The translations under genes and the position numbers were made by a program. A stretch of DNA of 64,000 nt from Raillietiella orientalis (taxonomy: Eukaryota): contig JAYWIR010000010.1 in assembly GCA_036172245.1 (NCBI GenBank), positions 4,712,001-4,776,000 of the forward strand, written 5' to 3'. Below are positions 346 through 50,600 of this stretch, piece after piece (positions within the stretch are counted from its first letter, which is position 1; every line of letters begins with the position of its first letter). The notes beneath the pieces are model-generated. The model was not told the DNA's origin. It ran no database searches and worked only from the letters and a program-made list of their open reading frames with translations.

Positions 346-381
346 ATCGCTTCTCGGCCTTTTGGCTGAGATCAAAGTGTA
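346..381 (+). pseudogene. 3'-truncated U2 snRNA fragment (first 36 nt), probably retroposed
   Basis: ATCGCTTCTCGGCCTTTTGGCTGAGATCAAAGTGTA matches the U2 5' end (one A>G change) and stops inside the branch-point recognition sequence. No downstream GTATCTGTTCTT. Flanked by direct repeat ACCATCG (343-349, 381-387). Confidence 0.9.
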
Positions 382-479: not shown

Positions 480-2914
480 GCTTACACGTGAGGAACGCAC
501 CGGAAAAGACAAGTGAACAGCTGACCCAAAGAAATGCACACAAGAGAGCGTACAACCAAGAATGCGAACGTTTTCCCTTTGTAAATGTCTTCTGTGCGAA
601 GGGTGAGGGACTCCAAGCTGCACCTCTCTTTCCAGTAAAACGTAGCTTCTTGGATCGTCATCTGGACCTTATGGCATTTCGGCGCTCTCATCAGCCAAAT
701 GCATGCGCCCCTTTCGTGTCCTTCAGGTGTGGCTATCGAAGTTTCTGTTGTCAATTCTCCTCCGCAGTCCAGCGGATTGGGTGCTGGGAGAAATTCGCCA
801 GATTCAGTGGTTGCTTCGAGCAGTCAGAAGCAGGGAAGGCTGAATTCAGTGTTGCGGTTTATGATTTTCAGTTAATCGGAATGAGAGGTGCGCCCAGAAA
901 AGACTTCCTCAAAGGAAGACCGGCGAAGAATCGAAACCAACAAACACTGCCCCACTTACGATAGTATTCGCCTATTTTCCGTTCACATTTCTTTCCTTGC
1001 GTTCCACGCGGACAAACACACCTGCATTCTGGTCCGGAGTAGCCATCGTTCAGGCATGGATCTCTAGATTTCCTGCATTGCTTCAGCCAGAGATCTTTCT
1101 CACAAATATCGCTTTTTCCAGGAGAGCGATAGGTCTTACCAATGCAGCCATATGCTTTATTTACTAGCAGTTCATCATAGTGACTTTCGTTGGCTCCCAG
1201 AATAGGCTGCTTAAGGATATCTTTCGTCACGATGGCCTCAGAACCATCGACGCTAAAGGTCTGAAAATCAGTTCAATTTGTCTTTTGTTAACCGCTGAGA
1301 ACTCGAAGATCACTGATTTTTCGTTCTCGTGTGCATGTTCTAGGCGACGATGAATCTTGCATGGAGTGCACAAAAAGTATGCAATCGCTTCGAAACAATT
1401 CGCTTCGAAAATTGGGGAAGGTTTAGCCTTCTATTTTGATATATCATTAAGCTAGAACAGCAAAGAATCCGTCTTTTCCAATCCGGCGTGGATGAAGCCT
1501 CTTGCGTTGCATGAGAAATGCTCTTCTTAGGTAGACTGAGGAAAAGGCAAATCGCCATCGGCCGACTTCCGTACCGCGAGGCTTTGAAGACTGTAAGCAA
1601 ATTAGCAAAATGATCACTGGAATAAGTGCAGCGGCTCGCATGACAAATCTGAGGTACTAGGGATTCTTCAGGTCAGAAATTTCTTTCAGCCTGGTTCCAG
1701 GGCAGAAAAATAAACTTGTCCCTCTGTCGCAATTGCAAAGTTCGAGATGGGAAAAAATCAAATAGTCGGTCATTTGCAGGTTAGAATAGAGAATCCAACG
1801 GTTGTTTTATTTTGGGTGCTTTTTGGGGTCAGAGAAGGGCATCCGGAAACAGTGCATGTCTTCGGGAATTTTCGAAAAGAAGAAAACCAAAACATGCAGT
1901 AATATGCCTCATTTAGAACGTTACTAGTGATACACCAAAACATTTCGTGGACTGCAATTTGCTTAACGACGGAATTCTTCTCGAATCATGCAAAGAGCCG
2001 TGAAGATGATTCGTACGGAAGAGCAGCGACGCAAAATATGCCCGTGGTGTCCTAGTGTATTTTCGCGGGGTGTTCACACTCATAGTCTAGAAATGGCGTT
2101 CGGAAAGCACTACTATCTCTATTATTAAGACAGAAGATCTCCATTATCTGCTGGATAATGGAGAGCTGCATCCGAGTACTTACATTGAATCTGTACTGCA
2201 TAATGCTGTAGTAGTCGTAGGGCACGTTGTAAGTGTTGCACTGCTTCATATCGTAACTATACCTATTTTCTGGTTTTACATTGTCTATGTTGACGAATAT
2301 GTACTCATCCCGGTAAGGACGACTTTGTTCGTGGCTCATTCCAGTGCTGTGACCAAGCTCGGAAATGACTATGCCCACCTGACATACAAGTAAAATGGTT
2401 AGCAAAGCAGCTGAAGGGAATTTGTAAGGGATGATAGAAAGGAAGAGTTTAAATTGTATCCCTCTCCCGAGAAAATAGGGAGTTTGTCACGAGCACACGT
2501 AGAAGATTATGCTCTGCAAAAATAAAGAAAATTGTCTCCACGGAGAATGGTTTTGACGGCTGCATCCTAGCAGTTTGTCACCTTATAGGTATTGCCGTTT
2601 GAACACAACCTTTTCCGAAATGGAATAAGGTGACATTCTGCGTGCACATGTATGGCACTCGATTGCATCACGGATTCTCCTAAAACACCATGACTCAACA
2701 TTAATTACCGATTTGCACTCCGGTGCCAGGTTGACAAATTGCTGATTCCCAACACCAAAATAGCCTCCGATGTACCCGATGTTGGCGCTACCGCCAGTAC
2801 CATTGCGGATTATAATGATGATAATCAGGATGGTCGACATCTACTTTCGAAAATCGTATGCAGGTTTTATCATGGTAGTTGTTTATAGAATCACCTTCAG
2901 AACGTCAGGGCGTA
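480..2914 (-). pseudogene. Astacin (M12A) metalloprotease with EGF-like and CUB domains (BP10/SpAN-like), disrupted
   Basis: Exons: 2914-2709 (YHDKTCIRF...GSANIGY...ECKS, needs two frameshifts); 2378-2184 (SELGHSTGMSHEQSRPYRD...PYDYYSIMQY); 1260-960 (TFSVDG...YGC plus EGF DPCLNDGYSGPECRCVCPRGTQGKKCE); 783-~570 (CUB CGGELT...CIWLMRAP). The first Zn-binding His is Ser. Possible upstream exon at ~4107-3968 and a CUB tail to ~300. Confidence 0.8.
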
Positions 2915-22277: not shown

Positions 22278-25200
22278 ATGAAGCAAAAGTATCAGCTTGA
22301 CAGTGCAGGCTTGTGGCCTCATCCGGATAAGTTTGCCTCAACCATCGAAGTGCGTTCCTACCCAAAGAGATGGCTTTTGTTAGTACTGTTGATGCTGGTC
22401 ATATTGCTAAATACCTTCTTGAGCACTCAATATTTGCTAACGACACAGTTGATGGATGTGCTCTGTCCAATATCTGAAATCCTTTCCACCAAAATCTTTC
22501 TCCTGTATTCTATAATACCATTTTTGTCCATCATACCATCCTGCTGGATACTGCATTCATGGGTGAGTCAATTCTGCCGGTTCAAAGTAGTGTGAGCGGG
22601 AGAAAAAAAAAAAAAAAAACGGTTAACATTTAGTGTTTGTTATGACTGCTGTTTTTTTCTGAATGCCAAGGTTTTGTCGAATGCCTCGCGAAAGTGTTTG
22701 TATCCAGTGGGAACTGACAGAAGTGCTTCTTGTCTGTCAAGAAGCAGGATTTGTTTGTGCACTTGACGTCGGGAAAGAATGGCAAGAAGATGCTGTCGGT
22801 TGGCTGTCCGTTCCCCCAGACACAGCGTGAGGCACTGTGTAGACGTGGGAAATGGAAAAGTCCTAAATTTCAAACAAGAACGGAGTTTGCATCCTCGCGA
22901 AATGGGACTGCCTTCATGTGAACTCTTTGCCATACCCATGAACAAAGGACCGCATTGGCAAGAAATGCACATCCCCTCAGCAAAGGTCATGAAAATGTGA
23001 CAGAAAGCTTCAGCATTGCATATTGCTGAGAGAAGCATTTGGCCACTCGCTTTCAGGTACTTCGATGGGAAGACCGCCTAATATCGTGGATTATGCACAC
23101 GCTTCATTGAGATTTCTACTAGTAATAATAATGACGCGCGATTTTCAAAAGTGACCAACGCCATGCAGCCACTGTTTTACTACTACTGATGGAGTGCAGG
23201 GAAATCGACGCATCCACTTTCTCATTCACTTTCTTTTGTTTTCATGGAAAGTTGCTGACATCTTTATGTATGCTTGTTCTCAAGTGCGCTGGTTCTGGAG
23301 CAAAAGAGAGAGCCGCAATGGTGTAACGTACAGAGAGCTGTTGCGATGGTGTGAAGGTGCTGCAAACCCTGTGTCTGAGGAACAGAAGCCGTTTTCACAG
23401 CACCTACCACTATCCTAAAAATAGGGAAGCACGTACTAGTTATTGTGGACCTGGTTTTCACAAGAATTCCTGCGCAACATCAGGTCATTTTTCATGGAAA
23501 ACCAGAAGGAAGCTCCAATGGAAGCTTCAATGCTGTAAGAACGTATGACGACTGAATAAGACAGATAAGAAAAAAAAGTAGCTTAACGATACGCCAAACG
23601 GAAAACATCTGTCCCATGAAGAACACGCTGCTTATGGGCTCAGTCAACATCTTCACTTTACAAGAAATACGCGTGCAATTACAATCAATCTTTGCAGCCT
23701 CCGAGACCAATTAGCTCTCTCAATCAAAAACCAAACTAAGAACTCATTTCGATGCCATTACCGTACTTGAGAATTAAAAAGCCACCATGGTTTAGCTTTT
23801 GTTCTCTATGAGAAGGTAGAAAATGACCATCCATGTTTGCATTTTGAATATCAAAAGTGCTCCAACTTACCACTTTGCCTTGGGCCTTGATTATGGCATT
23901 GAATTCCCTATTCCCTTCTGGCAGTGCTTTCCATCCAGTCTTGCTCATAATTAAATTTATGAATAATTTCAATGGAAAGTTCGGATGGCGAGTGACAGGT
24001 GTTCAGTTTTGACTTGTCCATAACGAGTGTGATTAGTCACACTAAAGAAAATAATGCAAAAAAAGGATATTTGCATTTTGTTTGAGCAATGTGTTCACGA
24101 GGAGAACGTTCTTCTCAATGTGTACAGTTGCACTCTGACATTCTCGAGTGCCTTAACGTTCACCACTACCTAGCACTGTTACCGTTCAGATTTACAGAAG
24201 AGTGTGGTGGACACCCTCAAGCACCACGTGTGTTCCAAGTGCAGACTTGGGCGCCCTGAAAAGGGACCTGTTGCATGTTCCTATCAGTAGATGACACTGC
24301 CATTCTGAATAGAACGAGAGCTGCTTACAAGGTTGCGATAATTCCAAATTCTTGAGGCGTTGGGGTGATTCGAATGAGGGATTTCGGGGACTCCCGGAGC
24401 ACAGTACGGCTGCACGGCTGTACGCATTGCCGTTCTCCGTGCTTTCCCGAATTCTGAGATAGGACGAATCGCAGCAAAGTTCTCATTAGACCACGCTTCT
24501 GTTAGCACGTCTCTCTGCAAAAGAGCTCTGTAGTTGGTGTCTTCCGACACCTCGTTTCTGGCCGATTACGAAGCAGGGGCTGAGTGCTTGCCTTCGGTTC
24601 TGCGGTTTGAAAGCTCCAGATCAGTGGAATGCTCGCATTTTTTCTAGTGAATTTTCTCTCTTCTTTCTAGCTCGCTTCTCTTTTCTATTTGTATTCTGGT
24701 TCATTTCTAACAGGACCGAATCGCCCGCGTTGGCGGCTGTGGCTACGGTCTCCGCACATGGTACCGGACCGCAGCCACACAGCAGCCCAGGCTGAACGTG
24801 GTACCAAGAGTTGCGGGTTCCAATACGCAAAAAGGATCGACGCCAGAGAAGTGGGCTTGGAGTTGCCTTCGCAAGATGACGCTGCTTGTCCTGTAGACTA
24901 CAGGTGCGGCACTGGTTGAAGCCGGATTCTCCTTTTGACCAATTGGAATTGAACCTTCCGGGTCCCTTCCAGGAAACAAGGAACCGTTTTTCTTTTGGGT
25001 TCCCCTCCGGTTGGGCAAATGGAGATGCCCATCGAGTGCCATGGAGCAAATATGTGCTTCTGCAGAGTGTCAAGAAGTGAGCTGTCCCCTTCGAGGAGAG
25101 ACTCTTCACAGAAATGAGAAAGCGTTCCTTCATGGTTTCCTCCAGAGTAGAAATTCAGGAGCGCGAATCCTTTTCGGGTTCCACTCGGAGAGGACACGAG

Positions 25201-28200
25201 GAGTGACCCCTAGAGGGGGATCCCCAGAGAGAATAAGGGAAAGGATGCCTTCGGATTTCCTTTCGGAGACCACCAGGGCAAGCTTTCCCTTCGGGGTCCT
25301 CTCCCAGCAGTAAGAGGAACTCACTCCTTCCTCTGGAGCCTTCCTGAATTCATAGGGTGGTTCTCCCTCGGGCACCTCCTAACTTGAAGAATGAACACGC
25401 CCTCTCGAGTGGCGCAAGCAGTGTTAAGGAGCTTCATAAGCAGCCAGACGAACGGTTCTTCCGTACTTAGCGAACCCCAAAAAAAGGTCGACTCTGGAAG
25501 ATCGTAGAAAGCCTCTTCTCTCCGTAAGCCAATTCGAGCAAGTTTGTCAGCGTAACGAGGTGATATAGCGCGAGTGACTATCGATGGTAATGGTCTGGCA
25601 CGATCCAATATTACTCTTTCGGAGCAAAAAGAAAAAATGGTGGTGGTTCATGCATTCATTTCTCAACAGCTTCCGGAACTCAAAAAGTCGAGTTGGGAAA
25701 GACGCGTCCAAAAGGAGTGCAGCGGAAGTGGGAATCGGTGCATGTGGCTTCCGTGTCGCAGTCTCCCCAACTCTTCGGAAAGGGAGAAGAAGAAGAAAAA
25801 AAAAAAACCACAGACAAAACTGAGAGATTTTCCAAGGTGGAGAAGTTCTCATTGCAAGTTAGTGAGATCAGAAAAGATGGAGCTCTGAATTCTCTCCCGA
25901 AGCCTCAACGAGCATTGCACGAAGAGCCACGCGAGGTGCGCATGCGCTCTGCTGTACAAGACAAAAAACCCTTTGTTTCGAATCCACGAATTTCATCCTA
26001 AGAAGTATGGCCGTCGCTCTTTGGGGTGGACTCCAGGATGCGAGTGCTTTCGCGTGTCTAGGCAAATCAGTACCCTCGGCATCTCAATCAATGAAAGTCT
26101 GTACAGTCTATACAACCGGTGATTCGGGAGGAGTCCATGCTGATGGCAGAGATCTTGTGCTAACTCAATCTCCGTGGACATTCTTTCCGATCGCGCAGAT
26201 GGACTTGATAGTTCCTCAAAACGTGACGCCGATGATCCCTCCGGCTGGCCGCACGGAATCAAACGCATCCGCCCTGCTCCAAGCACCCTTTCAATTTATG
26301 TGTCACGAAAGTTCGGTTTGGAGAGCCAACCTGATGCTTTTTTTTTCTTTTTGCTTTCCAGGGATTTCGAAACACGTTGGTTTTGGCGTCCTTCTTGAAC
26401 GCTGCCGGTGCATGGATCAGATGTGGAATCTCATTACCTTACCTTTTCTATATTGTCACTGCTGGGCAGGTGTTCATCACTTTTGCCTACTCCTTGATCT
26501 TGGTGCTTCCATGTGAGCTATCGAACAGTTGGTTCTGCATCAGGGAGTCTTCCATAGCCACCTCTTTTGCGATGATTGGATATCAGGTATCTGTGTGCCC
26601 ACCACGAGCAGTCTGAAGAGATTGCTGGCTCCGGTCCGGCTGCGGGAGTCGATTGAAAAGCTGCGATCTCTCCAGTTGTAGGCGAAGAATTTCATGCTGA
26701 ACCGGAAAGGTTCGCTCTCTTCCGGCTGACGCTTTGCTAAGAGGGAAGCATCGGAAGTTTTGCGCAGGAGAACGACGAATCGCCGTCGGTGCTCTCGCAG
26801 ATCGATCTAAGACCCTGTTGGGAAAAAGTCCTACATAGCTTACAGCCATGCCATGCTTCCAGTTGCATGAGCCCATACCTTGCACTGGAACGAATTTTGC
26901 TTTCTTTCAAGAAAGAAAAATTCCCTTCATTGCTCCCCTTTCGGTTGCTTTCCTTTGCGTCTCCCGCTTGGCTTCTTAATGTCTGCATGACGTTTGCTAA
27001 TTTTCAGCTTCCCAATCTGAATTCCTCCATCGCTTGTCACTCGAGCTGGAGAGTTGATGAATACCGCCGGATGTTTCGCGGAAGAGATGGCAATAAATCA
27101 GCCATCTATGTAGTTATCATTACGTATTGAAAGTCTCTTTCAGATTCTGTGTGTTTACTAGTAGCATGTCAGGAATTTTTGCTAAATGAAACGTTACAGG
27201 CACCTTAAGCCTCATTCCTGGATTACCGTTAACTTGCTCATTATGAAGTCTAAGCAACTGTACACCATAACTGAGCCACAATAACAACTTCCGACTTTGT
27301 CGAGAATTCGCCACTTAACAAAATGAAAGAAAATAAGTAAACATCACGGTCTGGGCAATTTTTTGCAGTCATCGCATGCACTGTGGATGATGCCTTTTGT
27401 CGCAGCGTGAAATTCCGACGAAAACCAAGTTAAAATTACATAGAAATTCCTGCCATTCTCAAAAATTCATAATTGCAGTTGGGACCCATGTTGGGCATTT
27501 TCCTTCCTAATGCATTAACGACGATAAACCTTCAAATATATGAACCTAATTTCAAGTACAGCGAAATGAATTACATTATAGCTGCAACCAGCACTGTCGT
27601 CTGCATACTAATACTGCTAGGTGTGGCAATTAATCTGCGGAAGGCTTTTAGTACTAACGTGTTTTCCAGTGTCTGAAGAGCATCCTCCACATCATCCTAG
27701 CGCGTCAAAGGCTATCGTTGAAGACATCTTCAAAGATTACTTCTGCCGGTGTCTGAACTGGATTCTCAGAGAAAGGACTGATTTCTTCTACTTGATGCTA
27801 TCAGCAGGAATCCTGTCCGGAGTGCTGACTACAACTCTACTTGAATTTCAAAGGTTCCTGAGACCTAACTTTTCGAACGTAAGCCTCTAAGAATGTTGAT
27901 CACAGTCTGGACTTAACCAAGCTCTCGTGCTGTTCCCAAAGTATCACAATTTTAGCAGTCGCTCTGAGAGCCTTTCAGAAGCTCCTATTCTCTGAGAAAT
28001 TGGAAACACGAATCCTCGGTGCCACAGAGAATCACTTTAGAGGCACTTGCTAACTTGTTTTATCCCGGAAACTACTCTTGTGTACAATCAGCGTACTGAC
28101 CTTGCGCGCACTTTGGATCGTGATTGTTTTCTTGAGCGTCTTGCAGGATTCGAATCCATAGGATTTTCCTAAATGATCAACTCGTTCTTGCGTTTTTCAA

Positions 28201-32597: not shown

Positions 32598-33786
32598 TAT
32601 TAATATAATCTATTGTGGAGAAATGCGAACGTCGGGCAAACCGTTTCTCAACCGTACCATCATGGTTTCCGTGCTTCCACAGATGAAGGTGCCATGCAAA
32701 CAGGCTTCTGATGTTAATCCCTGAAGCATCCTGATTTTATTTTAAAGGATTTTCATTTTAAAGCAAACTGATTCCCGTTGGCAGAAAAAGCAGCCTCGTT
32801 TTTTAGACGAACGTGTTCTTCGTGATAACTTCTTGCTTCCTATCATCCCGTTACAGCTCCATCAGCCAAATAGCTTTGCCATCGGATAATGACAAAGGAC
32901 GTATCAGGCGATTTTCGTGCTCCGTCAAGGAAGTGCCAAGCCTAACATTAGGGCCTCATATTTTGTTTGAGTAAGCGTCCCGAAGAAATACAATTTAGCC
33001 ATACTGAAGGCGATCAAAAACTGCTTACATATGGGAAGAAGTAAATGAAGGATTCCTCAACAGAGAAGACAAAATTCGTACAGAACATCATCATTCAGAG
33101 AGCGCCATTCTGAGGTGCATGCCATGGGATCACTTAATTTAGTATCTCCGGTTCAGAGTTGTTAAGTACATCCGTATGGAAGCCTTTCCTTACCTTCTTT
33201 ACAGTCTTTCAGTCTTTGATAGGCCAGGTTACAACAGTCTCTGCAGAGAATGAGGGTTCCAGGCTATCCTTATCAGAGCAGGGAGAAGGGAGAAGCATCG
33301 CGTACATAAGAGAAGAGATGACCTGGTTAACTTCTGGTGGAAAACTGATTTAAGGCAGTACCACCCAAGCCTTCTCTTTCACCAAAAAGGCACTGACAAG
33401 AACAGGGTGACTCAATGGTCTGAAAGGATTCGGACTGCCACAGCTTCCAGGACCTCAGATGCACATGGTGTTCCAGCAAATTGAATCTCCTACTGTGGTA
33501 TCATGCTGGAAGGAGCATTCTTGATATGAAATTATCTGGGGGAAATGAATCGGTCAAGACACATCCGTTGCCATGCTGGCACAGGCCTTCGACTTCATCC
33601 TGTTCGACTTTCCTAGTTTGTAGAGAGTGTGCAAAAGATACAATGTACAGTGATTGTGTTAACGACATCGGTGAGCCTTCCCGTAAAATTACCGATTTTA
33701 TCCTACGACCACAGAAGGAACGCTTCACTGCACATGAAGCAGAAATCAATTACCCCTCGAGATTGTGAGACACTAGAAGGCAGTCG

Positions 33787-34769
33787 TCCGCGTCGGAGGC
33801 TTTGTGGTTAAGGCTTCCGCGCGTGGCACATGCGTCGCGGGTTCGAATACTCCGGCAGAAACTGACGCCACTGCGTCGTTGGGTTCCGATTTCCTCCTGC
33901 AACGGCGCTGGTTGGCCTAATCATTCGGGCGTGGCACCGGCGGTGGATTAAGCCGTAAACCACCGATGAAGGCCGGAACAATGGGAGACCTTCGGGTCCT
34001 TCCAGGAATAAAGGAGTGGGGAGTTCCCCCTCCGGTCGTGCAACGGAGAGCGGGCCCCCCTCACCAGGGGTCCCCTCTGGTTTCAAGATGGAGCAGGAGC
34101 CCTCACGGACACCTCTCCAGTTGTTCAAAGGAGCGGACCCTCCATGTTGCGGGGTATCCCTCCGAGTCGTCGCCTCTTCACAGAGTGCAAGGAAGCAAGC
34201 GAGAGCGATTCCCTGCAGGAAGCTGCAGCGCCGCTTCTAAGTTTCGGAAGCGTTCCTTCGGGGTTCTCTTCAGAGGAGTGAACAGGAGCGGTTCCCTTGT
34301 GGGTTCCCACCGGAGAAGAAATTCCTACTAGCTTCATACTTCGGAGAAGTTGAAATGGAGAGGACAGTCCCTCCTTATTGGGGAGGTGTCCCTCCGGAGA
34401 GAATGAGGAAGGAGATTCCCTTCGGGGTTCCCCTTCGGAGACAGCCAGGGTGGGAGGTGCGATCCCCCCCATCCAGGGTAGACCCCCTCCCCAAGCGTGA
34501 GAGGAACGGACTCCGAGCCCTTCCTGGATTCATAGGGCGGATCCCATCTCGGGTGCTCCCTATCCTGAAGAATTGCACTGAAGCCGATTACACACGCCCC
34601 CCTGCGGGTTGCCGCAGGCGAAGAGGCGTGGAAACAAAACTGTGTGTTTAAAAGAGCCAAGTGCGCCGCGAGGCACGCGATCGGTTCTGAGGTACTTAGC
34701 GAACCAAAAAAAAAAACGACAACTCTTAAAAAAAAAGGCTGGAAGGAAAACAGCGAAGACAGAAGAAAA
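33787..34769 (+). mobile_element. tRNA-headed hairpin-array SINE-like element, copy B (full length, with TSD)
   Basis: A-box-like GAGGCTTTGTGGT (33796-33808) and B-box GGTTCGAATAC (33840-33850); at least 8 tandem hairpins; 3' GGTTCTGAGGTACTTAGCGAACC plus poly(A)/A-rich tail; 12-bp direct repeat AGAAGGCAGTCG at 33775-33786 and 34770-34781. Confidence 0.85.
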
Positions 34770-36799
34770 AGAAGGCAGTCGCACAGAACTTCTGCGGAAA
34801 GATCTTATTCTGAACAGGAAGAGGGATCGAGTTGCGCCAGTGAGTTGGCAGATGTTGTGGAGCGCTTGTTTGTTCCGAGGTACCGAGAGGGTGCACCTTT
34901 TGACTGAGCAATTATAAAGTGGGCAGTGCAGTGTGAACCCAATGTGGCAAACTGGAGTCGAAAACGGATGATAGAGGGAGAGAGATGATAGAGGTTGCTC
35001 CGTTCTAATTTATTTTTTGCAGGGTCTCGCTGATAATCTTATCGTTCTCTCCCGTGGGGTGGTGCATGGTGACCGAAAAATTCAATCTCATGGCACATCT
35101 GAAAGGTGATGAGCCACGTATCAAAAAAACTACCCAAACCTCATTTTTCTGCTTCCTTCTTTCAAATCGAACTTGTTGAGCTTCAGAACGAGGAAATTCA
35201 AGAATCTGCTGCACACGAACGGAAGGCTTTCGATTCACTGATGATTAAAAGCTCCGTGTTTTTTTTTTTTTTTTTTTTTCACATAAAACCTCTGCTCCCA
35301 GGACTTTAGCATAGACGATTCGAGTTCCTCCGAAAGAGGAATGCATCAGGTGTTTCACACATCCAAAAGGTGGCTGGAAAGAGGGCAGAAAGGGAGATTT
35401 GGGCCTCCCCAGTATCGATTCTAAATGGATGTGTCCTGAAACAACAGATCACAGTTCATACTTCCTCCTGTGTGATCCGGTGGCGATTAAAAGAAACAAA
35501 GAAAAAAAAGATTAATCAAAGTTTCAAATTTTTATTCTCCTAATAATAAAAAAATTGCCGAAACATTACAGACTCTGAAATTCAGTGGGGTTATTCATCA
35601 GACAAACTCGAAGGAACACCATCCTCATGAAAAAATGGAAAATTCGTAAGTAGGAATATAAAAAACTCTGCGAGATGAATGCGTGGATGCTTTCGATACT
35701 AAAGTGCTCCCGGTTCGAAATGTAAACCGATGAATTCCATCCACATCCGACTGAAGTGTGCTAAAAGTTCCACGGGAGTGTTCTCACGGTGTCCTCCTCC
35801 TGATCGTGGACAGCAGCTTCGCTTCCGGATGTGGACAGGCAAGTCACATCTAAATTCACATTTGGAAAAATATCTAGAAATGGAACTCTGTAGCGCAAAA
35901 TTGTCATCTCCTACATCCGATAGGCAAAAAAGGGGGGAGAGGTGGAAATGAAAGATTCTTCTAAATCTCAAAACTCGACCGAAGGAATATGAATTAGCTG
36001 TGAATATACTTGAGCTTCCGCTGTGCATAGTGGCAGGTGCTTCAACAGAATCTATAGTGGCAATATTTGGGTTTCTTTTCTTTGAAGCATTTCGAATGAC
36101 TTTTCTTGTTGCGCGTGCACAAAGGAATCCTATTTGTTCTCATCGTTGATTTCCTCGGAGCTGGGAGAAGCAGTCTTTGCTTTCTCGTCTACCTGAGCGT
36201 TCTCTGGAAAAGGAGGCGCCATTAGCACAAGAATAAAATCAGGAATCGGATCAAAAACGTTCTTATCAACAGGAGAAAGCACGCGTGCAGATTTCGGAGA
36301 TTATGATTGCAAATCCAGGGATGTGAGCATCAGAGTATTGGAACACATCGCATCCACCCTCAATCGTAATTTTTAACACGGAATTCCATGCCCAGGCGGA
36401 GGGGCATCACCCCCCTAAAAGCGTCGCTCCCGAACGCTGAACGATATGTATAGTCGTGCGGAAATTCTTACGAGTGGGTTATTCTTTGAAACTCCTGAAG
36501 AGTAAACGTCATCAGGCGCTTCCTGATGAAAAGGTACTTGAAACAAGTAAAGAAAGGAAGATTTTGGAAAATTCTAGTGAAACTTCAAGATACTCGGAAA
36601 TTTCTCCACGAGTCTCTAAAGAGATCTCTTTGGACTTTCTTGATGGACACTGGGCTAAACTCCACACTGCTGTCCACTTAGTTTTTCGCGTTCGGTATTC
36701 TCCTTGCGAATGCGGCACTTTCCATGGCTTTTAAAAGGTACTTCGGAAGGTGGGACACACTGGTGCAATGCATCCAGCTGCTCAAAGATGGACAAGGAT

Positions 36800-41600: not shown

Positions 41601-44600
41601 TGCCGTAATTCTGAAGCTGGGACGATAAACAGAGGAACTCGGGGCGTCAGCATGAATTTCTGGTTCTCGGACCGAGAAAATCGAGTTGCTGTTCAAATCC
41701 ATGATTGCCATGGGAACCACGAATTCGTCTAACCTGTTTTTCAAATATCACCAAGTAGATTTACCATTCTGGATTCAGAGATTGCTGCGGGTTTCAAGGT
41801 AGCAAATAACGGCTTCCTTTGATTCCGCTTGAAAATCGTTTTTGTTTTTTCGAATGCTGCAAATTAATCATCAAAAATAGCAGAATGATTTCGGAAAACA
41901 TAACAAGAGGAACGGAGTTTTTTTTTCAGGCGGTTGACTTCTGTCTCTCACCCATGGATACCACGAATAGTGCTTTAGCTCAAACGACTTTATAAATAAA
42001 TATATATATATATATCAAGCTAAGAATTGCTTTTCTTCCTTCGTTCAGAAAACGAATCACAAAAACAGCTGGAAATGCGATGATTGTCAATATGCTTTTC
42101 AGGTGACTGATGTCCCTAGGACAGCGGAAACCGATTTTTCCAGCAGAAGGCGCACGAGTTATTTAGAGTATGGTGAAGGAAACCTTCAGATTCCAATAAT
42201 CATGTTTAGTAATAGTTATTAGCGTCGAAGTAATTTCCTGTCCATCCGTCTGCGTGAGTTCCGACCATCCTTTTTAGCACATTCAAATTGACATACTGAT
42301 AATGGAAAAAGCAGAAACATCTGAACCTGAACTCTTGAAGTGGCTTCGATTCCACGAGCTTAAACCGAAAAGACGATTTGCCAACAGCACTGGCAGCGAG
42401 AACCAAAACGTTTTCTCGTCATCACCATGCCTCCTTTTCAATGGAAGAGTCTAAAAGGCTCTCCAAAGTACTGAAGAGCTGCAATTGGTCCATATGGAGC
42501 AGCCAAGTTCGACTCGCTTTCCCCTTTCATCATGAAGGAGACACGTCCTGACGGCACGTGTTTGCAAGCTAGAGGACCAAAACCCTTAGGATGATAAAGA
42601 AGGGTGATAGCGCGGTGCGTAGAAAGCTGTAAGCGTCAGAGGGGAAGTGCGTGGATGGCAGAATAAACGTGGTTGACACAACGGCGATCCGGCCGTCCGA
42701 CGACTGCGGCAACAGCAAGAAACGCTAACCAACTCAGTGCTGCTGTTCACAGCCAAGCAGGTCTTTTTCTCCTGCTCCTACCGCCTCTAGTTCCAGACCC
42801 GGGTACCTGAACATACATGAAACCTTTGGAGCATTTCGGAGTTCGATCTGCAAGCGCCTCACAGGTTGAGCGCTAAACGGAAACTCGTGAAGACAGTGAG
42901 CGCAATTTGCGCAACGGCAGTTACGGAGAAGAAACCGGGTGGTAGTCAACCGAAGACCGGAAGTGAAGATGTGCCTCTACGAACTTGAAAGCTAGCAGGA
43001 ACATGCATTGCAAAGACGCGCCTTCCTTATTGTTCAGTGCCATCAGTCGCCTCAAAGGCTGAGAGGCGATAGCCTCTCAGTATTGGAAGCCACGTGGATG
43101 TTATTACGGTATTTGAAATATCTGAAGATCATAAGGACAGTGGAGAAGTTAGAAATGCAAGGCACTGTGCCATGCTAAAAGAAAAACTTGCTGTGATTTA
43201 TCAAGTGGTACTCTGTTGCAGCACGAGAACCTTGTTATGCTGATACGACCGTGAAATCGATTCGGAAACTCTATTTAGAACCTCTCTGCCTCATCTAGAA
43301 TACAGTGCTGGACTCTCTGCTTTTTGACTACCTCATTTGCGGCCTCCCGAAAAGCCACACTGCGTGAATTCAAAGGGATACGCAGTTAGCTTGATGGGAA
43401 AACCGTTAAGCCGTTATCTTAGACGACACGGAAGGCATCTCGAGAAGCCAGCGGACGCTGCAAACATGCTGCAAGCTGTGTCTCCTTCATGTGATCGAAC
43501 ATAAATTGACCAGCAGTTCGCCAATTTACTCACATCAAGGTCGGCAAACCGGGAGAGTCCTACAGTGTAGCGAGGTGATAGGAACTTGGCAAAGTGCACG
43601 GGAAAAGTGATCCAGAAATTTACATTACGGCAGTAGCCTGTCCAGCTCATCCCGGAACGAGAAGGAGGCGAGTGGTAAGATGAGCAGTTTGTGAGTTCAA
43701 AGCTGAAAGAGGACGTGCTCTCGTCTCGATGCAGCATTTGAAAGGAATTTCGACAGAACACAATCAGCCAATGGAAACGAACGCACAGGATTTAAATCAC
43801 CCCCATGACAACCTTTGTGTCAGACGAACTATGATCATGCTGGAAGGAAAAGAATACGTTCCCAGAAATCGAAATCTTCAACGAGGAAAGGGATTTTACG
43901 CACGTTCGGATCTAGCAACGGAATTCATTTTTCGCAGCATTTGTGGGGAACGGAGAGTCAGGATTATCAAAAGCCCCCTCCCCCTTCCCCCTAAAATGGC
44001 AATTGCTCCTCTGGATGTCCGCCTGATGAGCGGTCGTTCTCCTGACCAACAGGCCTTGCAGTTCGTCGTCCTCTTCTGGGAGACCGTACGTCAAGAGCGC
44101 CATTCGGAGCCACTTACAGCACGCATCGGAAGAGTTCTAAAGCAGCTCCAATGAATGTGGAAAGAGAAGATTTAATAAGACAGCTTGCTGCGCTGTCAGT
44201 TGTCCGTCGCTTTTTAGAGAAAAAGGATTCTTGAGAGCTTCGCCTGACTGCACCGCAGCCTGAGAAAAGGTATTCCAGAAATAGCCACATGAAGCCGTCA
44301 CCCCCATTTCAGGGGGAGGACCCTCCATCTAGCATCATTGAGCTGGTTGATGCCTCTCCAGAGTGTCAGAAGCGCGCTGCTCCCTTCGGGAAGCGCCATT
44401 CAGAGAAATTCCGAAGCGTCCGTTCGGGGTTCTCTTCAGAGGAGGAAACAAGGAGTGGTTCCCTTGCGGATTCCCTTCGGAGAAGAAATGAGGGTCGGCT
44501 CCCTTCGATGTGTCCCCCGGAGAGAACAAGGAACCTTCCGGGTTCCCTTCGAGGTCTCCTCTCAGGAGTAAGAGGAACGGACTCCTTTCTCCGGAGCCCT

Positions 44601-47600
44601 TCTGGATTCATAGGGTGGTCCCCTTTCGGGGCAGCCCCTAACATGAAGAGTTGTCACACGCACCCTCTGTTGGCGCGGAGCATGCTGAAGAGCTTCGTGA
44701 GCCGCCAGGAGAACGGTTCTTCAGTGCTTAGCGATTCAAAAAAATGAAAACCAGAGAGTATAATAATAAGAAAAAAGAGTTCTACTAGCAGGGTGCCTTT
44801 CGAACGCAATCACCATGGGCTCTCGGAACCGTCTCTACGAAGTGCGTTGGAGAATCGGCTACTGGGATTCCGGAGCAGAGAGAGAGAAGCGTGTGTTTAT
44901 GAAGAGCTCAGAAGCTCCCGTTATTACTTTGTGGATACGCTGCTGCTGCTGCTTTGCAGGGCATTTTCGTGGCCTTTTTCGTGGCCAACCAGTGCCCTGT
45001 TACTTTCCCTTTTGTTCACTATTTCTTGATGGTTCCTCATAGAACCTCAGCTGCCTAATCAAGCAAGGTGCAGACCAATCCTTTCACAAGGAGCACAAAA
45101 AGCTGACCAGCGTGCCAGCACACGAGATTCGGCGCTCTCACGGAATGAAGATTGCTCAGCCAGTTTTCCGGAACGGAGTCATCCCTCTCAGCTGCATTAT
45201 TAAGGAACCAGACGAACATGGATAGTCTGCAAAGCAATCGTTTTGAGGCACTACCACTTGGTTTCCCTGAGAGAAAGCTTCCCGAACCGTTGGGCAGGTG
45301 GGTCAGAAAGCCAAGTTAAGTGGATGAACCCAGCAGGACTTGCTGGCACGAAGGAAGGCTTCTGAAATCCCTTGAATGTAGAACAGCATAAGCTGCGTTC
45401 TTCTTCAAGCAGACTTCAGCTGACTGATCGCGTGGTTTCCAGAAGCACCAACTTTAATTTTCTCGAGCTGGTTGCATGCCGTCTCCAGGCAGCAACACAT
45501 TTGCCAGATACTAAAGCTCAATTGACAAAAATGTTTCCATTCAGTTATCGGATGAGGCTGCAACATCGATAGGATCAGCTGTCTTACGAGTTTATTTGAC
45601 AATTTAAGGAGAACAGCATCCGACTTCTCGTCGCCAAGACCACCGAAGTGATCACGGAATGTGAATTTCAGAATTCCAGTCCAGAATAGACTTTTAGAAC
45701 CTGATCGGATCTCGGTCTCCAGAAACGGCTCTGCGCTTTTCGTAAGAATCGGACTGCAGGAAGTGCTTTCGTAGGAAAAACACTCGGGAACGATCGGGAA
45801 GAGCAGAAAAGGCAGGCAATTCCCGTTCCAATAAAGTTCTGGGTCATCTGTTTGGAGAACGCTGAGGTCTTGTTGTTGAAGGACCTGTGACTAAGTCACC
45901 AAGGTACAAGGAGCGAGACACGCCCAAAGTTAGCAGGCCCTTACAAGGAGGCGAGACTCGGGAGAGTGCGCGCCCTGACCGCTTCGATTGGCGATGGAAA
46001 GAGATAAGCTGATGCGCGAGTGATAGACACACCTACAGGGAATTATGGAAACTGCGGATGCGCGGAGCAAGAGATGCAACGACATCGATGCAGCGCGGAA
46101 GCAGAGTACCTTTCGGAAAGACTTTCGATCTTAAGGGATTGCATGGAAGATCGAGTGAGCGTGCTGCTGTCAAAGAAGGGCAGCAATCTTTTAAGCAAGA
46201 TGGAGGGCTCTCTTGAACCCGGGAGCTCGATCGTGAATGAATATGAATCACCAGATACGGGATCATGGAGGCGGAGCAAAACACCGAGAAGAGTGGAAAC
46301 CCTCGTATCCAGCAAGATTCGTCAGTCAGGACCCAGGAGGACGGGAAGCAGTGAGGGACGCGCAGCTTCGAACGGGGATTCATCCATCTGCTTGCTAGGA
46401 AAGAAGACGCCTTCGTGTCTTCCGGCAAGGACCCGACCTCTGAAGAATCGTGGGTTCCAGAGATCACCAGCAGGATTATGAGAGCTGCTGTTCTTTCGAA
46501 AGAGATAGAAGCTTCCTGGAACACCATCGAGATGAAGCGGGTGATGGCCAAACGGGGAAAGGGAAAGAGGAATCGACCGATGCATCAGGCGCGCGTGACC
46601 TTACGAGAGACGCATCTGGCAAGGAACAAGAGGCGGGAAGGTGTGCTGGTCCGGAAGGGAATTCTGGGAAGCTGCTCCCGTTTTCGCGGAGCAGATTTGT
46701 TAATATCATCTATTACCTAATAGAGCTTCGGACTGCGGAGCAAAGAGCAGTTGACTAGGGAGAGGGACCTCTGAAACTGGCCGAGGCAGAAGCAGTAAAT
46801 TTCACTTGTCATCTAATTGGATGCTGCAGACGAAGACAAGAAGCTGCTTGCTCTTCGAGTAGCAGACAGGGGGAACACGCTAGCTTGGGATTTATCCGTG
46901 TGATCCCAAAGATTCCTCCGGAAGACTCTACGAGCTTGCAGCAGCCTAACTGGAGCGTCACGCGTCGTGCCGAAATCCGCGAAGGGTGACCCCAGGCAGC
47001 GAGTCCGCGGAAAGCAATACCGGCGGATCTCCGCGTCGCGACGCGAGAGCGGTGGGCGTTTCCGGTGACGAACAGCTTCTGACGGCTCCTCCTCGGGGCC
47101 AACGGCGCGGCGCGGCTAGGAACAAGCAAGTCCCCTAGGTGTTAAGACAGTGGGAGACACACCAAAGGCTGCCTTGGAACAAGGAGTCTGTTGCCTGGAG
47201 AGTGTTGCCCGAGAAAGGAGTGCCAGCCTCGAGATGAGTTGAAGAGGCACTCGAGCCAGCAATGACCCACAGACACGATGCACAGATACAAAGCGGCGAG
47301 GTTCCTTGAAGCAGCGAAGCTCCTTTGCCTGTGGTTGCCAAGTCTGCCGCTAGGTGGCATGTGACTTCCTCGAAAGTTGTAGCTCCGAGCTGCAAAGTGT
47401 CCTTTCGCGCTTCCGGCCCATGACGGAAGGCGCTTGGAAACAGCATCCCGTATCTGGATCCTTGGGCACGATTTCCTTTTCTGCCTTTCTTTCCTCATGC
47501 CAGTCTTCTCGTTTTGTTCAGTGTGACGCGCCTCCCACGCAAGGCAGTAGCTGGACCCAGTGCGACAGAGTGCCGAATGTGGCTGTCCTTCCCTTCGGGA

Positions 47601-50600
47601 GCGGCTGCAAGTCCCCAGCTGTAGGTCTGAAGTTTCGGGAGAGACGAAACGGAACCAGGAAGAAAGAAAAAGAAAAGTTAGTCCCGGACACCAGGAAGGG
47701 GAGAGCCGCTCGAAGGTTTCAGTTTGCCAGGTATCGGCGGAAAGAAGGTGGAGCCGCGGTGCCGCTTTTAAGGAGTCAAAGTTCCCGCTTCTCGGAGGGC
47801 ACGAGATGCAGAGAAATGGAGTCAGATGACCACCTCGCAACGGCGAGATTCCCCTGGCCAGGAAAAGGCTTTCCGACAGAAGGGAGCACTGTTTATCCAG
47901 AAGCTTAGAGGAGAGAACAAACGGCTCCCACCGTCACTGGACACTGCGTGCAGAAGCTCAGCATAAGATTGCCTGAAGTGCAAGACGCGGTCGCGCAGCA
48001 GTGGGGTCGAAGAACTCACTATCGTCTATGTCGGCAGCGATGACCACGGAAAACAATCTCCGCGACTTCGACTGCCGTGCTCGTTTCCGCTCGCCTCACC
48101 CATGCTTACTGTCCCACTGCCTATTCCGTCCCGCTGGGTGGGTGTGCTTCAGGCCGGCAGGCCCGCTCTTTCGTTGGAGCTCCACGGAGCCCTTCGTAGA
48201 GGCGCTGGGGATTTTGAGTCCCCGGATAACTCCCTCGCCATACACTTCGGCCAGTAGGCAGCGTGGGCCGCTTCTTGTCGGTTCCTTTAGAAGGCAAGGG
48301 ATGCCCCCCGTCTGGAGCAAAGCCACAGGGGCGCCGCGGAACTGAGACGAGACCCCTGGTCCTCTCTCCGACTTCTGGGGAGAACACCTTTCGGTGGAAG
48401 GCCTTTTCCCTTTTCCTGAGCCCGCCGTGGCCCATTCGGACGGACCCCGCCGGCGAGACCGGGGCCCTCGCCGCATCTTCGCGGAACAGCATGGGCTCCA
48501 AACTCAAAGCGCCTCCAGAGACGCGCCTTCCTGAGGAACCGCGTTCCCTATAGTGACCGTCTTCTGCAGGCACTCGGAAGTTTTCTCGCTACCTAGAGGG
48601 ACGACGGATTTTTATCTCCGGGAGAGAGTTTTTAGCGGTAGGAGACTGCCCAGTGGACGCTCCGGCTGGGCAGAGGCGGTGGCCATTTCGAGATAGTCCG
48701 AGGATTACGCGAAAGTGGAAAAGTGAAAAGGATAGAAATGTAAAGGAAGAGAGGAGAAGGTGGAGGAAGGAAGGAGGTGAAGGAGAAAGAGAGAAGAAAG
48801 GGAGGAGGAGGAGGAGAAAGGGAAGAGGAGGAGAAAGAGAGGAGGATTTTCCGTTCCCAGGACTCCGTCCACGGTCGCTTTTTGACCCCTCGAAAAAAAG
48901 GGAGAACATACGGGAGTCCCATGAGCAGTCGAATTGCCTGGGAGTTTCCGTGGGGAAAAGATGACGCGGTCTCTTTTTGGATCACCTAGCAACGAGGAGG
49001 GGAGAAAGGAGAGGGGAATAGCCTTCTTTCCTTCCGCCATTTTCCCTCCCTCCCTTTCCAAAGCAGCCCTTTCTATGCAAGCTCCACACCCCTCCCTCTC
49101 GTCCCGGCGGGCGCCCTGCTCACCTGAACGCCGCGCTCACGTGGTGATTCTCCAGCACGGAGCGGTCGTTGTAGAGGAGCGCCGTGGGAGTGCCCGACAT
49201 CACGTGGAAGTTGTTGGTGGTGCCGCTGTGCTCGAAGTCGTGTATGAGTGCGGCGAAGAGGGTGGCGAAAATCTCCAGGTCGGAGAGCCAGTTCTGTGGT
49301 GAGGCGGGGAAGGAACACCGAGGGAGGAAAAGCAGATGACACGGACTTCCTAGACGCTGGTCGTGCGCTTGGGTGGGCAGATTTGTCCCGGAAAATCTTA
49401 GGAAGGGAAAGGACGACAGGAAGGCGCAGGAGCGTCCCCGCGTGCCGGGACTTTCCGGGAAGTCCCGGAAAGTCCCGGCACGCTCCTCTGGAGTCCCGGA
49501 GCAGAAGTCCCTCCTGCGCACAGCAGGTCGGCGGAGAGAGGAGTGCTCCCGCGCCTCGGGCACAGAAACCGAGGTCGGCACCTGGAAGGCGCTCGAAGCG
49601 ACCTCCGCTCGCTGGGCCGCGCAGTCGAGAGATGGACGGGTCCCCTCCCTTTCGTGCGCCTGGGCCGGATCCCCATTACTATCTTCGCTTGCCAAGGGGA
49701 CCAGAGAAGGGCTGCAAGGAGCAAGCGGGAGCCGGCGTCGTCGGCCTCTGGTCACCAGGGGACGACGACCAAGGAGGAGCGGGGTCGCGCCTGTTACGCG
49801 CGACGCCGACTTCACGCGCGCGCCGGCCCTCGGTTATGAAACTGCGCGGTGGCGAATCGATGGCGGCCTTCAAAGAAGGGTTGAAGATGCGGGGGAGGGG
49901 GTTACGGGCAGAGAAGCGCTCGCAAGTGCCACTCATGCGGACACTGTGAGTTTCTGGACGGCAGCTGCTGGACCGAAAGCTACCCTGAGGTTTCCTTCTG
50001 TCCGCCTGCCATCGTCCTCGGCGCCGCCTCATGGCACTCCGGGAAAAGCCCACAGCCGACAACGCAAAGAAGCGGGCTGCTGCGCTTCCGGCGATACTGA
50101 CCATCAGGCCTGAGCTGGACAGGATACAGTGGATGGTCTGGGTGACGTCTGCTGCGTGGATGTTGTTGTGGTACGGGTTCTTGTGCTTGCAGTAACCCTC
50201 CTCCAACTGATTAAGGAAGCTGTCGAGCGCCGCCGGAGGGATCTGCAAACCGAGACGGTTATGTGAACAAACGGAAAGCAGGGTCACTCGCAAGGAGGGG
50301 AAATGCCTCGGGGGGAAGCCACCGCCCTCGGATCTCGGGAGCGACGCGCCACGGAAGTCTGCGGACGACCACGGAAACGGAGGTGGTGAGCTCAACAACG
50401 CGGGTGGAGGGAGAGGAACGGTTCCCCGATCCTTCTGGTCACCTCTGGATCAACGTCTCCACCTCTCCGAGATCTAAGGGGGTCCGACGCCCTCCTCTCG
50501 GAAACCTCGCCGGAGGAAGGGTTCGCTCCCCTCCTGCAGGCGGAGGCCGCGCCGTTCTTTCGAATGTTCTCCGCGCCAATCCGAGTGCATCTCAGTCGAG

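Follow-up and report, generated by a model that had tools for sequence, protein, structure and literature searches.

Our analysis of a 64,000-nt stretch of host DNA (the window) indicates that a repeat present there in three copies, A, B and C, is almost certainly a tRNA-derived SINE. The best explanation overall, which we consider probable, is that this SINE is mobilised by an L1/Tx1-type LINE and that the fold of its body, a long array of hairpins, has been kept by selection on its source genes. The element is unusually long because a hairpin of 40 bases is repeated ~14 times inside it. As originally predicted, the window holds three related copies: nhmmer finds exactly three members (24725-25497 for A, 33787-34775 for B and 44110-44768 for C) with pairwise identities of 63-69%. 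The 12-bp target site duplication (TSD) proposed for copy B is an exact direct repeat, and motifs resembling the A and B boxes of Pol III promoters are visible in its head, judged by sequence (Table 1). Elsewhere in the window, a near-perfect 50-nt palindrome (49437-49486) lies in an intron-like GC-rich stretch of a phosphodiesterase gene and resembles mir-193 weakly, with a match on each strand that stays under the gathering score.

Table 1. Coordinates of the SINE copies, their parts and neighbouring genes in the window
Feature	Position	Strand	Remarks
Copy A	24723..25485	+	old subfamily; 5'-intact; decayed; stops at first A-run; aligns to old consensus 1-787
Copy B	33787..34769	+	young subfamily; 5'-intact; 3'-shortened in A-rich tail; 89.7% to young consensus
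Copy C	44289..44773	+	old subfamily; 5' part missing or decayed; appears 5'-truncated near 44289
TSD of copy B, 5' copy, 12 bp	33775..33786		exact repeat at 34770
TSD of copy B, 3' copy, 12 bp	34770..34781		exact match to 33775-33786
tRNA-derived head	33787..33861	+	60-64% to host tRNAs over 75-78 columns; 0/200 shuffles reach score
Head hairpin (long; first 42 nt refolded)	33788-33827		predicted fold
Box A-like motif	33805-33813		in head, by sequence
Box B-like motif	33840-33850		in head, by sequence
Post-head region	33862..33975	+	small hairpin; candidate second box-B-like motif 33881-33894; long bulged stem 33913-33975
Hairpin array, 14 modules, one of them mostly deleted in copy B	33982..34569	+	UUCG loops at 33991, 34257, 34421
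Last array module, 3-nt bulge	34529-34569	+	
Two further hairpins and GGTTC..GAACC stem (34683-34705)	34593..34705	+	
A-rich tail segment (A-runs, small hairpin)	34706..34769	+	copy B stops before the family's last two hairpins
Astacin with EGF-like domain, exons	868-2486	-	
Cyclic-nucleotide phosphodiesterase, exons	49073-50449	-	

The SINE assignment draws on the family as a whole. All 40 scored candidates match copy B, most of them near full length at 83-88% identity, and copies A and C match other genomic copies at 65-81%. A survey of twenty evenly picked 10-kb stretches (200 kb, from the nine largest contigs) gave 8 matches, 6 of them of at least 200 bp, covering 1.9% of the sequence, with one match per profile in the reversed control; extrapolated from this small count, the 210-Mb host genome would hold roughly 6,000-8,000 copies. 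One 17-nt tail motif has 288 exact matches against 0 for its control, SINEBase asking for at least 100 copies. At least four subfamilies can be separated, here called old (56 copies, median 16.5% from consensus), I1 (20 copies, 11.5%), I2 (20 copies, 8.3%) and young (50 copies, 4.6%); because they were drawn from the best matches these sets favour long copies, and 11 duplicates of 121 copies, plus 4 more from the old set, were left out. Up to a truncation hot spot near the 3' end the lengths are ~790 (I1), ~870 (old) and ~970 nt (I2), and the full-length young element measures ~1090 nt including internal A-runs, which places the consensuses, at 790-1090 nt, on the borderline of the SINEBase limit of <1 kb. 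The same 5' start is found in 80 of 90 young and intermediate copies, a set biased to full-length matches, and this fixed end, the TSD and the A-tail are those of a non-autonomous retroposon; no Met-initiated conserved ORF was noted in the SINE, in which stop-to-stop frames reach at most 156 aa. The freely accessible article literature that was searched contains no description of the family, and a metagenome scan with a 22-nt conserved motif from the window returned 0 matches.

Similarity to tRNA is concentrated in the head. The old consensus is identical to host tRNA-Arg(CCT) at 50 of 77 positions (65%), a score that 0 of 200 shuffles reach, and identity to host tRNAs is 62-65% for young and I2 and 59-64% for I1, with 0-2 of 200 shuffles reaching the scores across the consensuses and copy B; SINEBase asks for at least 60% over at least 60 nt. 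The isotype is tentative because 30 of the 62 listed host tRNAs were compared. Windows of the body score at shuffle level against tRNA, and ARAGORN calls no tRNA in the element. The prediction of a tRNA-headed SINE with a hairpin array is supported for the family and for the head of copy B, but not for the head of copy A, whose tRNA likeness is not separable from shuffles (50/200 reach its score). A 4-nt insertion would allow the first 42 nt of the head to fold as one long hairpin, which is retained between subfamilies with several wobble and compensatory changes, and the pairing of the T-arm decays in the younger subfamilies. A derivation of the array units from this T-arm was rejected, with scores near shuffle level.

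The array comprises ~12-14 palindromic units across the family, and the tandem repetition claimed for them is confirmed by a 4-mer autocorrelation of 21-29 against a shuffle maximum of 11-18, the period being 40 nt for old and 42-43 nt for the younger subfamilies. Each unit combines a basal G(G/A)AG/CU(C/U)C stem, an upper stem of C/G runs and a purine linker; a bulged C is frequent, and some units have a U·U internal loop. The units had been described as UUCG-capped, and TTCG does lie in hairpin loops at 33991, 34257 and 34421, but these are just 3 of the 14 modules of copy B; the remaining CTTCGG occurrences fall at an arm/linker junction (34434) and within the mostly deleted module (34340). 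CTTCGG occurs 5 times within copy B (984 nt), compared with 31 times in the entire 64 kb. It is the basal stems that are conserved, not the UUCG loops. Subfamilies differ by the gain or loss of whole modules, and the two arms of a hairpin often grow longer in step, in C/G runs.

On the predicted structures, the fold has probably been kept by selection in the source lineage. Copy B folds better than its shuffles (z -2.3 global, -3.5 local), and copies A and C barely do so (z -1.9 and -1.2). Once inserted, copies mutate alike in stems and loops (non-CpG rates of 0.152 vs 0.159 in old and 0.040 vs 0.049 in young copies), so the original claim that copies diverge but keep their fold has to be divided: inserted copies decay blind to structure, and the claim is supported for the source-gene lineage as recorded in the subfamily consensuses. 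Between consensuses, all 12 directed contrasts, which are not independent, show roughly half as many differences per site in stems as at unpaired positions (p 2e-8 to 0.018), with substitutions at 45/316 paired vs 84/365 unpaired sites from old to I1, 35/329 vs 79/401 from I1 to I2 and 10/398 vs 33/461 from I2 to young. Because folding a tip sequence biases such a stem/loop comparison, the contrasts were repeated with outgroup structures and neutral simulations. With the structure of the outgroup consensus the difference gave p=0.002-0.037 in 4/4 contrasts, and a bias-calibrated neutral simulation through the same pipeline gave p<=0.033 for I2/young and 0/150 for I1/I2. Broken pairs are fewer than in the neutral simulations for I2/young and I1/I2, old/I1 being marginal (p 0.06-0.23). 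The young branch carries 23 derived changes, 5 at paired sites and 1 breaking a pair; against selection, the I2 branch carries 8, with 3 at paired sites, all of which break pairs.

The kinds of change speak partly for selection and partly against it. G·U states outnumber A·C states 16:4 among pairs predicted on both strands (p=0.012), but the excess drops to 19:8 with antisense-defined pairs (p=0.052), and decayed copies, at ~1:1 in old and I2, also favour G·U in I1 (134:94) and young (281:184), at 1.4-1.5:1. Across subfamilies, two A-U or U-A pairs have become G-C or C-G by way of a G·U intermediate. Within the young subfamily, one near-identical duplicate having been dropped, shared variants lie at 6 paired and 23 unpaired sites vs 203 and 212 for singletons (p=0.0035), an avoidance of stems that is absent in old, I1 and I2 (p 0.4-0.9). 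The proposed covariation check had a divided outcome: double-compensatory counts are not above a base-matched shuffle in any of 8 contrasts (p 0.05-0.80), with p 0.0003-0.08 when measured against decayed copies, and the positive signals are those in stem rate, broken pairs and G·U states. The structures were predicted module by module, with soft consensus calls in C/G runs, and since units can cross-pair, whole-molecule folds differ from module folds. On the best reading the selection serves the element itself, with nothing that shows service to the host.

One alternative, unlikely but deserving serious weight, is that this is an ordinary SINE in which a palindromic unit was duplicated and pairing was held by template-switch repair of quasi-palindromes or by gene conversion between the units, with no selection on RNA structure. 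The strong 40-nt period, the joint lengthening of arms in C/G runs and the lack of excess double-compensatory change all agree with it, as does the near strand symmetry of folding, sense and antisense modules folding about equally well in I2 and young. However, the G·U excess and the long-lived wobble intermediates speak against it, and the bulged C and U·U loops persist and are not perfected. Stems are also unprotected after insertion, so that any repair would act only during the copying of source genes. Were the fold merely a by-product, the element would be an ordinary repeat.

The original prediction had also raised a multivalent role for the hairpins. We regard as doubtful a modular array in which the 40-nt units are docking sites, unit number is selected and copying follows two routes (one poly(A)-primed with TSDs, one from behind a stem-loop without them), and a putative specific multivalent protein scaffold in general as quite unlikely. 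The version in which each basal GGAG/CUCC stem with its bulged C binds one specific protein and module number tunes mobility, by analogy with SRP9/14 binding for Alu, appears improbable; the candidate binders would be a LINE ORF protein, a dsRNA-binding protein of the host or a factor of germline transport. In its favour, basal stems and bulge recur between units and subfamilies with varying loops, two central modules are identical in the old and young consensuses, and module number is higher in young than in old. Yet both I1 and I2 spread although some of their modules are changed or lacking, and the common descent of the units also predicts conservation of the motif. That the family consists of retropseudogenes derived from a working Pol III RNA of the host, and is not a selfish SINE, is barely credible, for although source-lineage stem conservation would suit it, as would the short U2 and U4 5' fragments in the same genome, one U4 with a flanking repeat, the four successive subfamilies differ by whole modules, copies run to thousands, and no Rfam family scores above its gathering threshold.

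At the 3' end, full-length copies show the last hairpin, a T-run, an A-tail and then a TSD mostly starting with A's. The GGTTC..CTTAGCGA stem taken earlier as the terminus proved to be internal: full-length copies run on for ~130 nt, and I1 is without both this stem and the hairpin just before it. Early stops occur after the GGTTC..GAACC stem, inside the A-runs (as in copy B, which ends at position ~1010-1018 of the 1086 in the young consensus) or at the hot spot, which lies just past a small stem-loop common to all four subfamilies. TSD-like repeats flank 9/19 full-length vs 2/26 hot-spot copies (p=0.004), a contrast partly confounded by copy age, and 7/13 vs 0/6 among young copies (p=0.04); 11 of the 56 tail-bearing copies in this survey had no findable head. 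No convincing TSD was seen for copy A. By analogy with tailless retropseudogenes, internal priming by a relaxed L1 would explain most truncations (PMC5322556), and a second pathway may make the hot-spot ends.

One hot-spot-ended copy (locus L240) has an unusually long, imperfect target duplication of ~27 bp. Short 5' snRNA fragments comprise U2 at window positions 346-381 and at loci L004, L054, L154, L176, L231 and L240 (7 in the ~1.05 Mb examined, three within ~40 nt of a SINE hot-spot end), and U4 at L174 and L183. The last loop of the SINE tail has what we take to be a resemblance to an HDV-like L3; a tail ribozyme was rejected, as inspection by eye shows no sign of the remaining HDV-like fold and Rfam reports no ribozyme there. 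Rfam has no match in the window copies of the SINE, and an antisense NrsZ hit at another locus (L009) reached 32.6 bits against a gathering score of 76.9. The idea that the hot-spot motif pairs in antisense with LINE ORF2 mRNA was likewise rejected, the matching runs (7-9 Watson-Crick pairs, or 9-14 with G·U) being mostly equalled elsewhere in the SINE.

As mobilising partner we infer an L1/Tx1-type LINE, which A-rich targets and A-tails fit. The best reverse transcriptase (RT) matches include many elements with open frames, in tandem arrays, and the translated elements mostly encode APE+RT proteins of ~1,200 aa, with relatives carrying zf-RVT, and some of the elements are of RLE type; from their sequences the APE+RT elements would be L1/Tx1-like. 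Few LINEs of other clades were sampled; for PF14529-type endonucleases, 32 candidates included 4 weak matches. A stringent SINE/LINE pair would share its 3' end, and the score of the SINE 3' end against five Tx1-type 3' UTRs is reached by 127-939 of 1000 shuffles. Homology of the SINE tail to a Tx1 3' UTR was rejected, the one look-alike being 22 nt long and not significant.

The LINE survey brought further observations. L1/Tx1-like LINEs stand head to tail with a spacing of 5-6 kb at loci L151, L152, L153 and L162 and on contigs C71, C114 and C189; many such tandem LINEs sit on small contigs or close to the end of a contig, and one 3' terminal hairpin is common to several of the families. Where two tandem Tx1-like LINEs meet (L151:5150-5289, minus strand), there is a U4 snRNA match of 75.6 bits, above the Rfam gathering score and directly before the next ORF1-like frame, which we read as a U4-headed or U4-targeting LINE. 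At L161:4005-4677 the 3' end of a Tx1-like LINE borders directly on a SINE copy of the old subfamily in antisense, apparently through insertion of one into the other. At two loci (L155:2571-5464 and L159:4125-6700, both minus strand) the 3' end of an RT-bearing element is fused to 28S rDNA, with an identical junction base at both and in orientation opposite to the rRNA; it is possibly an undescribed rDNA-specific element, its motifs presumably RLE/Utopia-like and its junction lying, we assume, ~17 bp before the R2 site.

For most tRNA-SINEs neither the origin nor the function of the body is known, and it is an open question in what way tRNA-SINEs without an SRP-binding domain compete for LINE proteins. 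For the reading we prefer, an L1/Tx1-mobilised SINE with a selected fold, the mechanism may be pictured as follows. Pol III would transcribe a few source genes from the internal A and B boxes to the terminal hairpin and T-run, through a body that appears almost free of T-runs (TTTT is absent before the terminal run in 3 of 4 subfamily consensuses). The A-tailed RNA would then be reverse-transcribed at A-rich nicks by the LINE protein, leaving the target duplications, of apparently ~10-17 bp, and the ends seen in the copies, and internal priming would give 3'-shortened copies such as B. The body, as the comparisons document, grew as a 40-nt palindromic unit was duplicated in tandem, and entire modules were later gained and lost. 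Purifying selection acting on the source genes would retain the hairpins, in keeping with the moderate statistical signal, probably because folding makes the RNA longer-lived or easier for the LINE machinery to capture; inserted copies, as their mutation pattern documents, are dead and decay neutrally. Four age-ranked subfamilies with discrete module gain and loss form a natural series for measuring stem conservation and testing module number.

Known systems offer partial parallels. As summarised in the SINEBase account (PMC3531059), SINEs there have a tRNA head, are non-autonomous and retroposed, are transcribed by Pol III, are interspersed, number at least 100 copies and stay under 1 kb, with lengths of 75-662 nt without tail. 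Our family resembles those tRNA-SINEs with a body of unknown origin in its tRNA head, non-coding body, A-rich tail, high interspersed copy number and subfamilies, whereas its consensuses are 790-1090 nt long and its body is a hairpin array; it makes up ~2% of sampled DNA and is longer than any family in the 2012 list as given there. Among other folded SINEs, the sources describe V-domain SINEs that retain one conserved stem-loop (PMC4758252) and plant L1/SINE pairs with compensatory changes in the 3' hairpin (PMC3747384). Alu with SRP9/14 is a precedent for a SINE that depends on its fold to hijack L1 ORF2p (PMC11760393) and SINEU with Tx1-Mar for Tx1-mobilised SINEs (PMC4494074), but these have 7SL or snRNA heads and are analogies without homology. 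Tailless retropseudogenes and SINEs are likewise 5'-intact and 3'-truncated at preferred points through internal priming by a relaxed L1; as described in PMC5322556, however, they belong to therian L1 and carry TSDs, and the main hot spot here is mostly without a detectable one (2/26). The plant SB1 SINE RNA has similarly abandoned the tRNA fold for bulged stem-loops, three of them as against ~20 predicted here, and binds dsRNA-binding proteins (PMC2408557, citing Sun et al. 2007). The quasi-oligomeric CHRS SINE, within the same SINEBase account (PMC3531059), repeats a degenerate internal motif >10 times, with variants differing in repeat number; the unit here is 40 nt and palindromic, and the likeness drawn is one of architecture. 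By analogy, CHRS would be the nearest architectural precedent for this family, and SB1 the nearest for refolding and for binding of dsRNA-binding proteins.
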